A stretch of DNA of 64,000 nucleotides from Escherichia coli (GTDB lineage Bacteria > Pseudomonadota > Gammaproteobacteria > Enterobacterales > Enterobacteriaceae). Position numbers and translations under genes: made by a program. Under the pieces are notes generated by a model. That model saw only the letters and a list, made by a program, of their open reading frames with translations. It made no database searches and was not told the origin of the DNA. Each line of letters begins with the position of its first letter. Position 1 is the first letter of the stretch. Location of the stretch: the NCBI RefSeq assembly GCF_013315695.1, contig NZ_CP054353.1; one strand, written 5' to 3'. Shown here piece by piece: positions 6,884 through 54,127 of this stretch.

Positions 6884-7875
6884 TGCGTATTCGCTACGGT
6901 TGGGAACTGGCTCTTGCCGCACTGCTCGTTATTGAGATTGTTGCATTTGGTGCAATTAACCCGCGGATGTTAGATCTCAATATGTTGCTGTTCAGCACCA
7001 GTGACTTTATCTGCATTGGCATTGTCGCCCTACCGCTGACGATGGTGATTGTCAGTGGTGGGATCGATATTTCGTTTGGTTCGACTATCGGCCTGTGCGC
7101 CATCGCATTGGGTGTGTTGTTTCAAGGCGGCGTGCCGATGCCGCTGGCGATTATCCTGACGTTACTGCTCGGCGCATTGTGCGGGTTGATCAACGCCGGA
7201 TTAATTATCTATACCAAAGTTAACCCGCTGGTGATTACGCTTGGCACGCTGTATCTGTTTGCCGGAAGCGCCCTGCTGCTTTCCGGGATGGCCGGAGCGA
7301 CGGGGTACGAAGGTATTGGTGGATTCCCGATGGCGTTTACAGATTTCGCTAACCTGGATGTACTGGGACTCCCCGTTCCGCTGATTATCTTCCTGATATG
7401 TCTCCTCGTTTTCTGGCTCTGGCTGCATAAAACCCATGCCGGACGTTACGTGTTTTTAATTGGGCAAAGCCCGCGTGTGGCGGTTTATAGCGCGATTCCA
7501 GTTAACCGCACCTTGTGTGCGCTCTATGCCATGACGGGGCTGGCGTCTGCGGTCGCCGCTGTGCTGCTGGTATCGTATTTTGGTTCAGCACGTTCCGATC
7601 TCGGTGCGTCGTTTCTGATGCCCGCCATCACCGCCGTAGTGCTCGGCGGTGCCAATATTTATGGAGGTTCTGGTTCCATTATCGGCACCGCCATTGCGGT
7701 TTTATTAGTGGGATATTTGCAACAAGGTTTGCAAATGGCAGGAGTGCCAAATCAGGTGTCCAGCGCCCTTTCCGGTGCGCTACTTATCGTCGTTGTCGTA
7801 GGTCGTTCCGTTAGCCTGCATCGCCAGCAAATTAAAGAGTGGCTGGCGCGTCGGGCCAATAACCCATTGCCATAA
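6883..7875 (+). CDS. lsrD: LsrD, AI-2 ABC transporter permease
   Basis: 330-aa membrane protein; ATGA overlap with lsrC; synteny. Confidence 0.9.
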
Positions 7876-7886
7876 AGGATATCTTC

Positions 7887-8909
7887 ATGACACTTCATCG
7901 CTTTAAGAAAATCGCCTTACTTAGCGCTCTTGGCATTGCCGCAATCTCTATGAATGTGCAGGCCGCAGAGCGTATTGCATTTATTCCCAAACTGGTTGGC
8001 GTGGGATTTTTTACCAGCGGTGGCAACGGCGCACAACAAGCGGGTAAAGAGCTGGGCGTTGATGTGACCTACGACGGGCCGACAGAACCCAGTGTTTCTG
8101 GTCAGGTACAGTTGATTAATAACTTCGTCAATCAGGGCTATAACGCCATTATCGTTTCTGCGGTTTCGCCTGATGGCTTGTGTCCGGCACTGAAACGCGC
8201 CATGCAACGTGGTGTGAGAGTGCTGACCTGGGACTCTGATACTAAACCGGAGTGCCGCTCTTACTACATTAATCAGGGAACGCCCGCCCAGTTGGGAGGT
8301 ATGTTGGTGGATATGGCGGCGCGTCAGGTGAATAAAGACAAAGCCAAAGTCGCGTTTTTCTACTCAAGCCCCACCGTTACGGACCAAAACCAGTGGGTGA
8401 AAGAAGCGAAAGCGAAAATCGCCAAAGAGCATCCAGGCTGGGAAATTGTCACTACGCAGTTTGGCTATAACGATGCCACTAAATCGTTACAAACCGCAGA
8501 AGGAATATTAAAAGCCTATAACGATCTCGACGCCATTATCGCCCCCGATGCCAATGCCCTGCCCGCTGCCGCACAAGCCGCAGAAAACCTGAAAAATGAC
8601 AAAGTTGCGATTGTCGGATTCAGTACGCCAAACGTGATGCGTCCATATGTGGAACGCGGCACGGTGAAAGAATTTGGCCTGTGGGATGTGGTTCAGCAAG
8701 GCAAAATATCAGTTTATGTCGCGGATGCATTATTGAAAAAAGGATCAATGAAAACGGGCGACAAGCTGGATATTCAGGGCGTAGGTCAGGTGGAAGTCTC
8801 GCCAAACAGCGTTCAGGGCTATGACTACGAAGCGGATGGTAATGGCATCGTACTGTTACCGGAGCGCGTGATATTCAACAAAGAGAATATCGGCAAATAC
8901 GATTTCTGA
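7887..8909 (+). CDS. lsrB: LsrB, periplasmic AI-2 binding protein
   Basis: 340 aa with signal peptide ([26 protein letters not shown]) and periplasmic sugar-binding fold; synteny. Confidence 0.9.
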
Positions 8910-45034: not shown

Positions 45035-45044
45035 TACGCCTCCT

Positions 45045-45749
45045 TTATCCGATATCGCTTCGGGAAACGGATAACAACTTTAATTCTGACTCAAGTTCAT
45101 CAACTCTTTCAGTCAGCTTCTGGATATGGTGAATCAGTGGAACAACCAGACGTTCGTACATTACACCTTCGGCAACAAGGCCATTGCTGGAAATGGTTTC
45201 CGGTGCATCATCTTCGTTGGCTGGTCGCCAGTGAACAAACTGAGGGGCAATTTCTCCTACTTCCTCGGCAATCAATCCATAGAATCCCCAGTCACGCCTG
45301 TCATTTTCGCATTGCGACCTGTACCACACAGGGCGCATCCTGAAAATGAGATCGGCGTGCTCTGAATCTATCGTCTCTACTGAATGTTTATAGCGGATAG
45401 ACGATGTTGACCGCAGCACAGACGAAATTGCAGGGTCAGGATTAAGATAAAGATTTGCCGCCGCTGTAGTTGTGCCCAATCCCCATAAATAAAACGCTTC
45501 ACGGCCAGTCAGCGGGTAAAAATCTCCGCCATAACGACCACTTTCCAGATCGTTCACTTCCACTTTGTTTTTCAGCTTATTATCAACTTCAGTTTTTGTG
45601 TATCTGGTGCTGATATCCTGCTTTGCACTGGCCATATCAGTCTGAAGCGTTGATACTTTTCCGTTAATAGAGGAAATATCTTCCTTTGCTTTACTAACAT
45701 CTCCCTTCAGCGTGGTGATGTCTCCCGGAATTACTGTTGATGTAGCCAT
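45045..45749 (-). CDS. Tail fibre/tailspike-like protein with C-terminal intramolecular-chaperone (peptidase S74-like) domain, 234 aa
   Basis: N-terminal coiled-coil-like region; C-terminal TSSIRYKHSVETID...GLIAEEVGEIAPQFV...YERLVVPLIHHIQKLTERVDELESEL resembles the autoproteolytic chaperone of endosialidase-type fibres. Motif-level recognition only. Confidence 0.5.
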   Translation of the reverse strand: MATSTVIPGDITTLKGDVSKAKEDISSINGKVSTLQTDMASAKQDISTRYTKTEVDNKLKNKVEVNDLESGRYGGDFYPLTGREAFYLWGLGTTTAAANLYLNPDPAISSVLRSTSSIRYKHSVETIDSEHADLIFRMRPVWYRSQCENDRRDWGFYGLIAEEVGEIAPQFVHWRPANEDDAPETISSNGLVAEGVMYERLVVPLIHHIQKLTERVDELESELKLLSVSRSDIG

Positions 45750-45758
45750 TTCTCTACC

Positions 45759-46040
45759 TCACATCCAGCCACGAAGTTGATGCTCAACAGCAACCGCGTA
45801 TTCATCGAATAATGACGATATTTGCGTATCCTTAATAATGCGCACGTTTACAAAATATCCATCTTCCTTAACACATACCGGTTCGCCATCTTCAGTCAGC
45901 TCTCCGGTTTCTTTGTACACGTTACCTATCACATCAATCAGAATATCATCCTGCATCGACTCGTCATTATAATAGCCAATACTTCCCATAAAGGCCGAAA
46001 AGTCGGCCCTGTCGGCAAATTTGAGTGTTAAATCTTTCAT
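45759..46040 (-). CDS. Hypothetical acidic protein, 93 aa, translationally coupled to the native stf stop
   Basis: ATG overlaps the TAA of the reconstructed stf reading frame (TAATG); no recognisable domain. Confidence 0.45.
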   Translation of the reverse strand: MKDLTLKFADRADFSAFMGSIGYYNDESMQDDILIDVIGNVYKETGELTEDGEPVCVKEDGYFVNVRIIKDTQISSLFDEYAVAVEHQLRGWM

Positions 46041-46246
46041 TAGATTGACTCCCCCATCTGAGCATCAGTCAATGCCTTGTGCCAAATACGCAGATTTCGA
46101 ACGTGTCCAAATAGGTGACGGTTGCCGGATGATGATTGACCACCAATATTAATGAAGCCTCCTGTATATTTGTGTTTTTTATAAGGAGAAAGGTGATGCT
46201 GCCAACTTACTGATTTAGTGTATGATGGTGTTTTTGAGGTGCTCCA

Positions 46247-46522
46247 GTGGCTTCTGTTTCTATCAGCTGTCCCTCCTGTTCAGCTACTGACGGGGTGGTG
46301 CGTAACGGCAAAAGCACCGCCGGACATCAGCGCTATCTCTGCTCTCACTGCCGTAAAACATGGCAACTGCAGTTCACTTACACCGCTTCTCAACCCGGTA
46401 CGCACCAGAAAATCATTGATATGGCCATGAATGGCGTTGGATGCCGGGCAACAGCCCGCATTATGGGCGTTGGCCTCAACACGATTTTACGTCACTTAAA
46501 AAACTCAGGCCGCAGTCGGTAA
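46247..46522 (+). CDS. insA: IS1 InsA
   Basis: Identical 91-aa InsA translation to copy A. Confidence 0.95.
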
Positions 46523-46944
46523 CCTCGCGCATACAGCCGGGCAGTGACGTCATCGTCTGCGCGGAAATGGACGAACAGTGGGGCTATGTCGGGGCTAAAT
46601 CGCGCCAGCGCTGGCTGTTTTACGCGTATGACAGGCTCCGGAAGACGGTTGTTGCGCACGTATTCGGTGAACGCACTATGGCGACGCTGGGGCGTCTTAT
46701 GAGCCTGCTGTCACCCTTTGACGTGGTGATATGGATGACGGATGGCTGGCCGCTGTATGAATCCCGCCTGAAGGGAAAGCTGCACGTAATCAGCAAGCGA
46801 TATACGCAGCGAATTGAGCGGCATAACCTGAATCTGAGGCAGCACCTGGCACGGCTGGGACGGAAGTCGCTGTCGTTCTCAAAATCGGTGGAGCTGCATG
46901 ACAAAGTCATCGGGCATTATCTGAACATAAAACACTATCAATAA
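46441..46944 (+). CDS. insB: IS1 InsB
   Basis: 167-aa InsB; one residue differs from copy A (G versus E near the C-terminus). Confidence 0.95.
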
Positions 46945-48379
46945 GTTGGAGTCATTACCAAGGAGAAACTACCTTAGCACCAATATTACCGTTAACCACA
47001 ACACACAATTCTCGACTTTCTGTGAATCTAAAGCCGATAATGCTTTTTCTCTCTGGTCGTTCTATAACGCTTTTATATTCTATTTTAGTGCCTTTACCAT
47101 TTGTAATGATTGCGCGTGCTCCCAAAGATGTATACCCCAAATACATATAACTTTCATCTGCAATTTCAGTTGTATCTCCCGTAGTGGAAATATTAAGAAT
47201 ACGTGCGCTACCTTCTTTGTTTGGCGATTCATCCCAATTGGTATTAACTTCTGCTAATGAACTAATAGCGGGATTGCACCAATTTAGAGAAATGGGGACC
47301 GTTACAATATCGCTGGCGCGTGTTACAGGGGATGCGCCTGTTATAATAAACGATGAAGCGCATGCCCCACCTTCAACTTGAGGGGTCGCAATATAAATAT
47401 AATCATCCGCGCCAGTGCCCACTCCTTTTGCCGGGGCATACTGAACCATTCCACCTATCATATTTTCTGTATCAAGTGCCTTAATTGTCGCCTCAAAAAA
47501 GATCCATTTGCTTGCTTCATCTTTAACAGCCCTTGCAGTAATGCGATTAGCGGCACCACCCGTCTTATCAATAGATAAATCTGTCGTATTTAAGTAAGCG
47601 TCACCTAAGAATGTGTAGGTAGAACCATCATAGTTTTCAAATCGTAATCGGCATCTTAAATTTGGAGTGCCACTTTGCACCCTGCATGATATGGTTACAT
47701 ACTTTTCTCCGCCTGTTACATCAAAACCTTTACTGCCGGAAACGGTTACTATGTTAATCGCTGAAATTTGCCCTACCATTTCTGGTTTTAATGTAAATTT
47801 TGCGTACTGGAATCCGAAATCATCTACACCTGATGCACTTAAGATCATATTTGACGACTTGTTCCATTTAGTCGGATTTGTTGAATTGATTAGCAGGTTA
47901 GTTCTTTGCCCCTCAATAAGCAGGCCATCACGTTCAAATCGTGGCTCGTCAATGGCAGCCTCTGTCAGCACACCAGATTTATTAATGTAAGTTGCTTTCG
48001 ATGCGCGTTTAAACTTTACAATCTTGTCGCCAGGCATTGTTATTTCATCGTCGCCAATAACAATTTTTTTATATGATGGCGAAAAGCCCGTAATCATATC
48101 CAGTGAATCATTAAACGGTATCCACACATCGGGCAACGGCTGCAAAACTTGTTTATACGGCTCCGCTGCCTGGCTTGCATACTCTCTGGCTGCGTCTTCA
48201 CTTGCTTTAGCTGCTGTCTGGCTTGCTGCCGATGCTTGCGCCGAGTTCGCCGCCGCAGTCTCGCTCGCCTTTGCGTTGGTTTCACTGGTTTTTGCTGCTT
48301 TTTGACTGTTAGCTGATGCAGTGGCAGAAGCAGCCGCCGCGCTTGCAGAACTGGCTGCGGCACTCTCGCTTTGGGCCGC

Positions 48380-48700
48380 TGCATCCTGACTGCTTTTCGC
48401 CGCAGTTTCACTGGCTTTGGCATTCGTTTCGCTGGTCTTCGCTGCCGTCTGGCTGGACTTTGCGTTAGTTTCACTCGTCTTCGCAGCTTTCTGGCTGTTA
48501 GCCGCAGCAGTTGCTGATCCAGCTGCTGAAGTCGCAGAACCGGCTGCCGCGCTCTCGCTTTGGGCTGCTGCAACCTGGCTGTTTTTTGCCGCAGTTTCAC
48601 TGGCTTTGGCATTCGTTTCGCTGGTTTTCGCTGCCGTCTGGCTGGACTTTGCGTTGGTTTCGCTCGTCTTTGCGGCTGTCTCGCTATTTTTCGCGTTGGT
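48380..48700 (-). repeat. Tandem 189-bp (63-codon) direct repeats inside stf
   Basis: gcagtttcactggctttggcattcgtttcgctgg... recurs at 48402 and 48591 (offset 189 bp); a more diverged copy lies upstream. Confidence 0.8.
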
Positions 48701-49229
48701 TTCTGATTTTTTGGCTGCTGTCGCGGAGTTTGCCGATGCAGTCTTTGAGGTCGCTGCCGCCTGTGCACTATTAGCTGCATTCGTTTCTGAGGTTTTCGCC
48801 GCGTTCTTCGATGATGCCGCTGCAGTTTCGGATTTCTTTGCCGCCGCTGCGCTCTGAGAGGCGGCTTCAGCGTTGCGTGCCGCTTCTTCCACCATTTCCT
48901 CAAAACGACGCAATGCCTCCGGCATGACATCATCTTCCGTCATGGCACCGAGAAAATCATTCAGCGTACCTGGTCTGGAACCTTCATAGACGGTAATGGT
49001 TCCGGCATGTGAAGGCGGAAAACCTTCAACCAGCAGGGTGACGCTGTACTGGCCATACTCAACATCCATGCTGTAACGCCCGGCTTCATCCGGATTTTCA
49101 GAGGCCACTGTGTTGACCAGTACCGTGGTGCTGTTACGCTTTGCCTTCAGTTGAATAGTGCAGTTCTGTATTGGTTTTCCCGCACCATCTTTCAGCACAC
49201 CTGAGATTTTTACTGCTGCCATATCCACT

Positions 49230-49286: not shown

Positions 49287-49886
49287 TCAGAATTTATAAC
49301 CGACACCAACGATGAAACCGTCAGTGCGCCAGTCGCCACTGCCGGAACCTTCATAAGCAATATCAATGGCCACGGATTCGGTCGGGTTAAACTGCACGCC
49401 AGCCCCCCATGCCAGAGACGTGTCGCTGTGGCGACCGTCATCACTTCCGGTCAGCACATCGTGCGTTTTCCCCTTGTTGTCAGTTACGCGGATATAATCT
49501 CCGGAGAAAGTCGAAACACGGCTGTAAGCCATACCCGCCATCGCATACGCGCTGAACCATTCATTCACGCGCACAGACGGCCCCACCATCACGCTGAACC
49601 AGCGGTTACGCACGGAATCTTCATGCCAGCGGGTATCGCTGTAACGGGTAAGCTGGCGATTCTTGTCTCCTGCATAGCTGAATGACGTCACCATCCCCAG
49701 TGTGTCCGTAAACTCATAACGGTATTTCACGTTAATCCCGTTCAGATCATCGCTGCCGGGAACGTTCGTCGAGGCATGAAGATACCCCGCGCTCAGCGTG
49801 GACTGATGTTCAGATGCCCATGCAGGCGCACCGGATACGGCCAGACAAATGGCTGCGGAAAAAATGGCGGCACAAACTTTACGCAT
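49287..49886 (-). CDS. lom: Lom-like outer membrane protein (Ail/PagC/OmpX family)
   Basis: 199-aa beta-barrel with signal peptide; position between J and stf as in lambda. Confidence 0.9.
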
Positions 49887-49953: not shown

Positions 49954-50793
49954 TCAGCTGATACTGATGCCTGCGGTGGCTTTCTTCATCACCACAACCA
50001 GCAGATCGCTGATACTTGCTGTGGGATACCAGTCATTTACCAGCCATGCTGACACCGAAAACTCCAGCGTCATGTGACCGTGACCGGCAGGCATATCAAT
50101 AACGCCACTGTAAATCAGCGTATTATCCAGCGCGGTACGGTTATAAATTTCAGCACCGTTTTTCCGCACTATCAGACGGCATGAGGAGTAAATATCAGTA
50201 TGCTCTCTCTCATGTTTAGCGCCGCTGAATGCCACCGCCGGAATAACAATCTGCCGGTCAAACGGCTGATCGTCATAAACCCTGACGGTAATGGTCCCTG
50301 ATGGCCACCGTTCCGGTGCACGGGAGTCCCGGGGGAAAGCTTTGCCCACTGTTTTAACGAGATCGCCTTCAATCTGGTTCGCGGACAGTTTTCCCAGAAC
50401 CCGACAGTTCTCGTTAATCGTGACGTTGTTGAGCGTCCCGGAGTTCGCATTCACGTTACCACTGATATCCGCATTTTTAGCAGTCAGCTTTCCGTCCGGT
50501 GTCAGGGAAAATGCCGGTGGATTTCCACCACTGGTAATGGTGGGGGCCGTCAGGCGCTTCAGGAACACGTCGTTCATGAATATCTGGTTGCCCTGCGCCA
50601 CAAACATCGGCGTTTCATTCCCGTTTGCCGGGTCAATAAACGCGATACGATTGGCGGCAACCAGAAACTGACTCAGTTTGCCTTCCTCTGTATCCTCCAT
50701 GCTGAGGCCAATACCCGCGACATAATGTTTGCCGTCTTTGGTCTGCTCAATTTTGACAGCCCACATGGCATTCCATTTATCGTTGGCATCCTT
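49954..50793 (-). pseudogene. J: C-terminal 280 codons of tail tip protein J, N-terminal part deleted
   Basis: Translation ends like lambda J (...[36 protein letters not shown]); upstream boundary is the IS3-family terminus at 50794; no ATG start. Confidence 0.85.
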
Positions 50794-50801
50794 TGTAGTG
50801 G

Positions 50802-54127
<3,326 letters not shown>

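Follow-up and report, generated by a model that had tools for sequence, protein, structure and literature searches.

The question raised by this locus is what a tandem repeat of 189 bp does within a phage tail fibre gene: whether it is an unstable element by which fibre length is adjusted, or an established part of the fibre itself. The repeat lies in a stretch of 64,000 nucleotides from Escherichia coli (contig NZ_CP054353.1), hereafter called the window. We consider it probable, and hold with good confidence, that it represents an old in-frame duplication of nine heptads in the coiled-coil shaft of a side tail fibre of the lambda Stf type. Published work or existing annotation already covers the gene, its family and the coiled-coil character of the Stf shaft, which leaves the 63-residue duplication and the recombinant one-unit allele as small new details.

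The initial annotation described the gene as encoding an Stf-type side tail fibre, and this identification holds. The N-terminus matches the phage_tail_N collar domain (Table 1) as well as the structure of the lambda Stf N-domain (PDB 9e7m/9mgh, residues 2-94; E 8.4e-49), and the whole protein matches the tail protein PHROG 1419 from end to end (E 0). Further along, a 'phage head spike fiber' domain (GTA_spike_fiber, NCBIfam NF048003, E 1.8e-16) covers aa 435-636 of an intact homologue, and PHROG 5939 covers aa 368-799. The automatic ORF call on the minus strand (46955..49228, 757 codons) begins at a GTG at 49228. A gene of the Lom family (Ail_Lom, E 6.6e-120) at 49287-49886 lies directly before stf and is itself preceded by C-terminal domains of the central fibre J at 49954-50805, the order J, lom, stf being the same as in lambda; likewise, Ur-lambda Stf has a homologous collar domain and its gene comes after J and lom. 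The distal part of lambda Stf is gp37-like and is followed by tfa (tail fibre assembly), whereas the window gene has the GTA-type domain, and beyond it come a 93-aa protein and a Peptidase_S74 fibre gene. Its N-domain, gene position and heptad shaft together place the window gene in the lambda Stf / phage_tail_N family.

Table 1. Coordinates of stf, its repeats and the overlapping or inserted features in the window.
Feature	Position	Strand	Remarks
stf, 5' part (2263 nt)	46960..49222	-	ATG at 49222; ends at the IS1 junction, about 754 of 801 codons
phage_tail_N collar domain	48827..49216	-	Pfam PF08400, aa 5-134; E 6.8e-67, 224 bits (cut-off 26.6)
Heptad array, 33 units of S-x-x-(A/N)-A-x-x	48182-48874	-	aa 119-349, no break; predicted trimeric coiled-coil shaft
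Unit 1 (189 bp)	48497-48685	-	aa 182-244, nine heptads
Unit 2 (189 bp)	48308-48496	-	aa 245-307, nine heptads; 85.2% identical to unit 1
Partial third copy, three heptads	48245-48307	-	from 2.3 copies in Tandem Repeats Finder and per-heptad identity at lag 189
C-terminal, putative receptor-binding region	46960..48160	-	'phage head spike fiber' (GTA_spike_fiber) domain; shortened by IS1
IS1 (768 bp)	46192..46959	+	inserted in stf; transposase models E 1.8e-42 and 7.5e-26
Displaced 3' remnant of stf	46040..46191	-	last ~45 codons and stop
279-aa ORF	48094..48933	-	Arg/Gln/Lys/Pro-rich; +1 frame of stf; 65 Arg
146-aa ORF	48417..48857	+	antisense to stf; Ala/Leu/Phe/Val-rich, 49 Ala

The window copy of stf is a relic, a pseudogene disrupted by IS1. 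Target duplications of 9 bp (AAGGAGAAA) flank the element at 46183-46191 and 46960-46968. Colinearity with locus L001 breaks at 46960 and at 46191, with both sides sharing L001 positions 7261-7269, and window positions 46191..45709 align to L001 7261-7743, where the gene ends at 7412. The insertion cuts stf near codon 754-756 of 801, so that the reading frame with its distal receptor-binding domain has lost the last ~45 of 801 codons. J is damaged as well, since its homology to the J gene of E. coli strain 755 starts only at window position 50793; an IS3-family transposase gene (50802-51548) adjoins this truncation, and an IS30 transposase gene comes next. An stf cut by IS1 together with a J truncated at an IS3-family element indicates that the prophage is defective. 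The junction of IS1 and stf was absent from all complete E. coli genomes searched. The gene itself occurs intact elsewhere: strain 755 carries an allele of 801 aa (WP_418511184.1; 99.6% nucleotide identity over 2269 nt) in a prophage near pinQ, ydfK and ydfJ, and the cultured lambda-like phage 2G7b has a 33-heptad allele that is 98% identical. The intact alleles, of 801 or 792 aa, resemble the window copy in having the same two-and-a-bit units of 189 bp and 33 heptads, and differ from it in lacking the IS1 cut.

The repeat itself was located in the stf shaft by the initial annotation, as tandem units of 63 codons, and both points are borne out by several independent measures. The array of which it is part directly follows the N-domain. 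Tandem Repeats Finder gives a period of 189 at 48251-48685, with 2.3 copies that match at 83% without indels (score 604) and with shorter periods of 42 and 21 bp nested inside, and a second, independent search for repeats sets 48251-48439 against 48440-48628, which are 82% identical. Periodicity, on which the repeat had been staked in the form of a dot-plot, is plain in the autocorrelation, which peaks at a lag of 189 nt (0.59) for 48100-48900 and, for the protein, at 63 residues (0.69), multiples of 7 coming next; the codon register agrees. Each of the two complete units spans nine heptads, and the three heptads of the partial third copy share 15, 18 and 15 nucleotides out of 21 with the start of unit 2. 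The motif KTSETNAK occurs about five times. The interval first given for the repeat (48230-48700) fits the unit coordinates, but it missed the more basic periodicity of 21 nt, or one heptad, by which the array extends to the limits in Table 1: 21 nt divides 19 of the 20 strongest lags and, without exception, the spacings between copies in the families of 31-60 nt recovered by the second repeat search.

The two units had been described as near-identical in DNA sequence, which does not stand. Units 1 and 2 differ at 28 of 189 nucleotides, 19 of them in third codon positions, and their longest in-register identical tract is 38 nt; at the protein level they are 85.7% identical, with 15 synonymous and nine non-synonymous codon differences. 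Even so, the duplication is more than a side effect of similarity between heptads, given that 5000 shuffles of the order of the 33 heptads yielded a best adjacent-block identity of 53.9±3.5% (maximum 67.7%) and none reached 85%, far below the 85.2% observed. The 189-bp repeat is therefore a real internal duplication, moderately diverged, and neither a near-identical slippage-prone repeat nor a contingency locus.

The duplicated segment is embedded in an array of 33 consecutive heptads without a phase break, the uninterrupted periodicity of a coiled coil. The first position of the heptad is Ser in 32 of the 33, the fourth is Ala or Asn in 32 (25 and 7, respectively) and the fifth is Ala in 30, with Glu frequent at the second position and Lys at the sixth. 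Ala makes up 37% and Ser 19% of the array, and hydrophobic residues are almost absent (a single Val in 231 residues); the Leu, Ile or Val that occupy core positions a and d of a canonical coiled coil are replaced at the periodic positions by Ser, Ala/Asn and Ala, an arrangement closer to trimers with small or polar cores than to leucine zippers. When the array was compared with that of an allele about 91% identical (L006), 16 synonymous and five non-synonymous differences were counted, for a dN/dS of about 0.09, which is close to the 0.10 of the N-domain in the same comparison and shows that the amino acid sequence is constrained beyond its composition. The C-terminal domains of these two alleles are so divergent that dN/dS is saturated there. 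Lambda Stf has an uninterrupted S-x-x-A-A-x-x array in the same register and with the same start, of about 35 heptads against 33 in the window, and it differs in having no recent 63-residue duplication. Within the window, no second array of the form S-x-x-(A/N)-A-x-x was found. Scans of Pfam, NCBIfam and PHROG gave no named repeat family over the shaft, the matches being to the N-domain, GTA_spike_fiber and whole-protein PHROGs.

The initial annotation also held the repeat to be prone to slippage and recombination, and it proposed comparing repeat number among Stf-like genes. This comparison was made among the 120 closest protein clusters, using those with the same junction after the array (YASQAAEPYK...), and it proved informative: 41 clusters have 33 heptads, seven are shorter by exactly 63 residues (24 heptads), and single clusters are shorter by 28 residues (29 heptads) and by 14 residues (31 heptads). 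Deletions of 4, 12, 30, 41 and 68 aa, each seen in one cluster, break the heptad phase, and a strict coiled coil might be unable to accommodate them; these out-of-phase variants may be sequencing errors or dead genes. The one-unit allele of 24 heptads, seen also on contig DABRZQ010000067, is an intact gene of 735 aa in E. coli AVS0655 (WP_283187771.1), whose genome is complete. This allele has the N-domain, flanks and heptad motif of the window gene, and differs from it in being shorter by 189 bp (nine heptads), which appear in the alignment as a single exact gap, in its chimeric unit and in a divergent allele of the C-terminal domain. When its unit was compared with those of its closest two-unit relative (L005), 20 sites were informative, the four at the 5' side matching unit 1 and the sixteen at the 3' side matching unit 2, and the two groups are separated by about 135 nt that are identical between the L005 units. 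Such a chimera is what unequal homologous recombination between units would be expected to leave. The one-unit allele is thus probably a deletion product, the direction of change being read from this pattern; a duplication followed by clustered divergence would be less parsimonious.

Recombination between units therefore appears real in kind, as the chimeric allele and the alleles shorter by two and four heptads indicate, but weak in rate, for change in array length is rare. The array was found in 968 of 5426 complete E. coli genomes. In a spread sample of matches from complete genomes, limited to those in which 99% or more of an 861-nt query across the array was covered, all 23 full-length matches were colinear and had the same array span at 92.9-99.8% identity, and not the frequent change of copy number among close relatives that marks a contingency locus. 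For these reasons, we regard as unlikely an alternative in which repeat number is an actively variable device for tuning length, with frequent slippage or recombination and with fibre lengths selected for different host surfaces. It would account for variants of 24, 29, 31 and 33 heptads between the same flanks and for the intact state of the recombinant allele, and shafts of other phage_tail_N proteins do vary in length and carry independent internal duplications. Against it stand the constant span of the sampled matches despite up to 7% divergence, the fact that the 25 best matches of the one-unit allele include a single one-unit allele, and the units themselves, which at 85% identity and with no identical tract above 38 nt are a poor substrate for slippage; moreover, no link of length to host was seen. 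In the wider phage_tail_N family, a crude measure on 149 representatives puts the length of the Ala/Ser-rich shaft anywhere between about 20 and 322 aa; as the C-terminal anchors differ, this measure is blind to conservation of heptad phase. Other members have internal duplications of their own, with lags of 14, 42, 56, 63 and 140 residues, and block duplication is thus a general route to change in shaft length over evolution.

Structural work on lambda gives the array a likely form. In a 2025 study of Ur-lambda by cryo-EM, cryo-ET and AF3, twelve Stf N-domains are resolved as a collar on the tail, and the four side fibres per virion are each modelled as a trimer (PMC12617516). [quoted passage not shown] AF3 folds full-length gpStf inconsistently with those tomograms, and the model of the proximal part combines AF3 with tomography of low resolution (PMC12617516). 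The window array corresponds to this proximal coiled coil. In an AF2 prediction of a single chain (aa 91-367; mean pLDDT 81), helices extend over aa 98-233 and 239-361 and fold back on each other as a hairpin at aa 234-238; the fold-back probably arises because only one chain was predicted, and it was not taken as evidence on architecture. A sequence search of the PDB found no solved structure that resolves an S/A heptad shaft. Outside the N-domain, its matches were weak and came from depolymerases in which the matching residues are unmodelled; matches to the RNA polymerase II CTD were discarded as compositional, low-complexity noise.

The array thus most likely forms a thin, parallel and, as we infer, trimeric coiled coil with a core of Ser, Ala and Asn. 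Small or polar cores of this kind are familiar from other proteins, as the alanine zipper of E. coli Lpp-56 is a trimeric coiled coil with a small core, and layers with Asn at position d occur in the trimeric coiled coils of autotransporter adhesin stalks. The window array shares with these proteins heptads that have Ala, Ser or Asn in the core; there is no sequence homology, and in the window, unlike in Lpp-56 and the stalks, the core consists almost throughout of these three residues for 33 heptads. Stable coiled coils rarely have a core restricted to Ser, Ala and Asn, and such a core poses a modest structural question of its own. With residues rising by about 0.148 nm each, the standard value, the array of 231 residues would measure about 34 nm and a unit of 63 residues about 9.3 nm, so that one unit should lengthen the fibre by about 9 nm. 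On this estimate, the proposal of the initial annotation that the repeat would set fibre length is a reasonable one. A literature search on how the number of heptads relates to the length of tail fibres returned nothing specific.

A different possibility would be that the segment is a flexible, disordered linker of low complexity in which the 189-bp repeat is neutral filler. A stretch so rich in Ala and Ser and almost devoid of hydrophobic residues, and for which no solved structure gives high-resolution density, would agree with such a linker. However, disorder and neutrality are difficult to reconcile with heptads that run on 33 times in phase, in a register that lambda Stf keeps despite its divergence, with the low dN/dS and with the predicted helix, and they conflict with the straight, rigid proximal fibres in the tomograms of Ur-lambda (PMC12617516); we consider this reading very improbable.

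Returning to the nine-heptad duplication in a coiled-coil shaft, we propose that three Stf chains would be anchored to the tail by their N-terminal collar domains, and that their 33 heptads would wind together as a slender rod whose core is of small or polar residues (Ser, Ala and Asn). This rod would keep the C-terminal receptor-binding domain at a distance from the tail. Unequal homologous recombination, made possible by stretches of DNA that are identical in the two units, can occasionally delete one of them and leave a shorter, intact fibre gene; array length is otherwise stable and the sequence is kept under purifying selection. The significance of this proposal is mostly one of annotation, in that the Ala/Ser-rich stretch of Stf-like genes would be a strictly phased heptad rod and not junk. 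In addition, the alleles of 24 and 33 heptads offer a natural pair in which the effect of shaft length on adsorption can be studied.

Similar heptads are found in fibres of other phages. The depolymerase DpK2 of a Klebsiella phage (7LZJ) has the same motif at residues 130-172, upstream of its first modelled residue (191), where the density was described as an extended, unmodelled N-terminal triple helical bundle (7LZJ). The T5-like L-shaped fibre of Salmonella phage Kenya-K15 has SETNAKA/SETAAKT heptads at aa ~109-200. Unlike the window protein, T5-like fibres and DpK2 have unrelated attachment and distal domains and no phage_tail_N domain, and the likeness of their heptads may reflect either exchange of a module or convergence in a sequence of low complexity. 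It is conceivable, although we regard it as rather doubtful, that the heptad array is a portable trimeric spacer of adjustable length, common to the fibres of lambdoid and T5-type phages and to depolymerases, that tunes their reach through O-antigen or capsule. The length of such a spacer could change by nine, four or two heptads through unequal recombination.

Finally, the array is overlapped by two long additional ORFs (Table 1), which are by-products of its codon composition. A stop codon in the +1 frame needs T at the second codon position of stf, a base that occurs there in only one of the 231 array codons (Val219), so that this frame is open across the array, with no stops, and needs no selection to stay so. 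The initial annotation had rightly taken the Arg-rich ORFs for spurious products of the repeats, which the frame analysis supports, but had placed them antisense; the 279-aa Arg-rich ORF lies on the same strand as stf. That either this ORF or the antisense one is a real overlapping gene is scarcely credible: their length and the annotation of an antisense ORF both in lambda and in E. coli AMSCJX02 speak for it, but the openness of the +1 frame follows from codon composition, the compositions are extreme (65 Arg in 279 residues, 49 Ala in 146), each alternative frame of the C-terminal half of stf carries 9-44 stops (27-44 in the shifted sense frames), and strong purifying selection acts on the stf frame. 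Accordingly, overlapping Arg-rich and Ala/Phe-rich ORFs of this kind should not be annotated as genes. Existing annotated examples are a RefSeq 'hypothetical protein' in AMSCJX02 and lambda orf206b (NP_040603.1), which lies antisense within the stf shaft and, although it belongs to a different allele, is Ala/Ser/Val/Phe-rich, a composition similar to that of the antisense ORF in the window. The +1 frame does surface once in the database, in protein P0115, where a frameshift briefly reads it and leaves a short stretch '...RPRRLHRQ...'.

In this window, the prophage tail module has been heavily degraded by IS elements (see the table below). The side tail fibre gene stf is interrupted by a complete IS1 at approximately codon 756 of 801, and a search of the complete E. 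coli genomes of the collection returned no record matching this IS1-stf junction at 80% coverage or more; the window may accordingly stem from a strain or species outside that set, for example Shigella. On the upstream side, the central tail fibre gene J appears, from the sequence comparison, to be truncated, since homology to the J gene of E. coli strain 755 starts only at window position 50793, and the open part of J comprises the last 283 codons only.

Features of the tail fibre region and its surroundings (window positions)
Feature	Position	Strand	Remarks
Pin-type serine invertase, 196 aa	43923-44513	plus	just past the fibre genes
Fibre gene with Peptidase_S74 intramolecular-chaperone domain	45045-45749 (ORF)	minus	downstream of stf
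Conserved 93-aa protein	45759-46040	minus	PHROG 1361, E 2.7e-44
IS1, complete, 768 bp	within 46183-46968, including target duplications		9-bp target duplication AAGGAGAAA
IS3-family transposase gene	50802-51548	minus	adjoins the start of J homology
IS30-family transposase gene	51772-52923		beyond the IS3-family transposase gene

The second fibre gene, which carries the Peptidase_S74 domain, is present in different alleles in the window (234 aa) and in strain 755 (346 aa). No nucleotide similarity was found between window positions 45035-45709 and positions 7743-8785 of the strain 755 locus, whereas the flanks of this cassette match at 98% on both sides. The tip of a second fibre or tailspike has thus been exchanged here as a mosaic cassette. 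The conserved 93-aa protein, for which Pfam and NCBIfam gave no matches, lies between the stf-like and S74 fibre genes in all four loci compared (the window, strain 755, E. coli AVS0655 and the lambda-like phage 2G7b), and it might be an adaptor or assembly factor. The invertase occupies the position held by pinQ in strain 755, and is matched by NCBIfam serine-recombinase models with scores under the model cut-offs. Recent papers link PinQ/PinR inversion of cryptic-prophage fibre genes to a block of T2 adsorption.

The two 189-bp units of the stf shaft are 85% identical in the window, with a longest identical tract of 38 nt, in contrast to 91% and a perfect-identity tract of about 135 nt in the allele of E. 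coli AMSCJX02 (locus L005, 1222-3618). Because the units of the latter are closer to each other, their sequences suggest gene conversion between units in some lineages. The AMSCJX02 stf is frameshifted and annotated as several pieces, apparently split by these frameshifts. Within its shaft, an antisense RefSeq 'hypothetical protein' is recorded (WP_096211417.1; L005, 1587-1838), and in phage lambda the gene orf206b (NP_040603.1; L004, 3495-4115) is likewise annotated antisense within the stf shaft; both are likely annotation artefacts of repeat composition. The database protein P0115, of the stf family, contains AAARPRRLHRQTSATAAKK, where the reading switches briefly to the Arg-rich +1 frame and then comes back with the heptad phase shifted. 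An error in sequencing or assembly probably accounts for this excursion, which illustrates how readily the open +1 frame hides frameshifts in the shaft region.

Heptads of the SETNAKx/SETAAKT type also occur near the N-terminus of the T5-type L-shaped tail fibre protein of the T5-like Salmonella phage Kenya-K15 (L007, 2180-5261; aa ~46-200) and of Klebsiella depolymerase tailspikes (PDB 7LZJ, residues 130-172). Since these proteins, unlike stf, are without the phage_tail_N domain, the shaft motif is common to unrelated fibre families.
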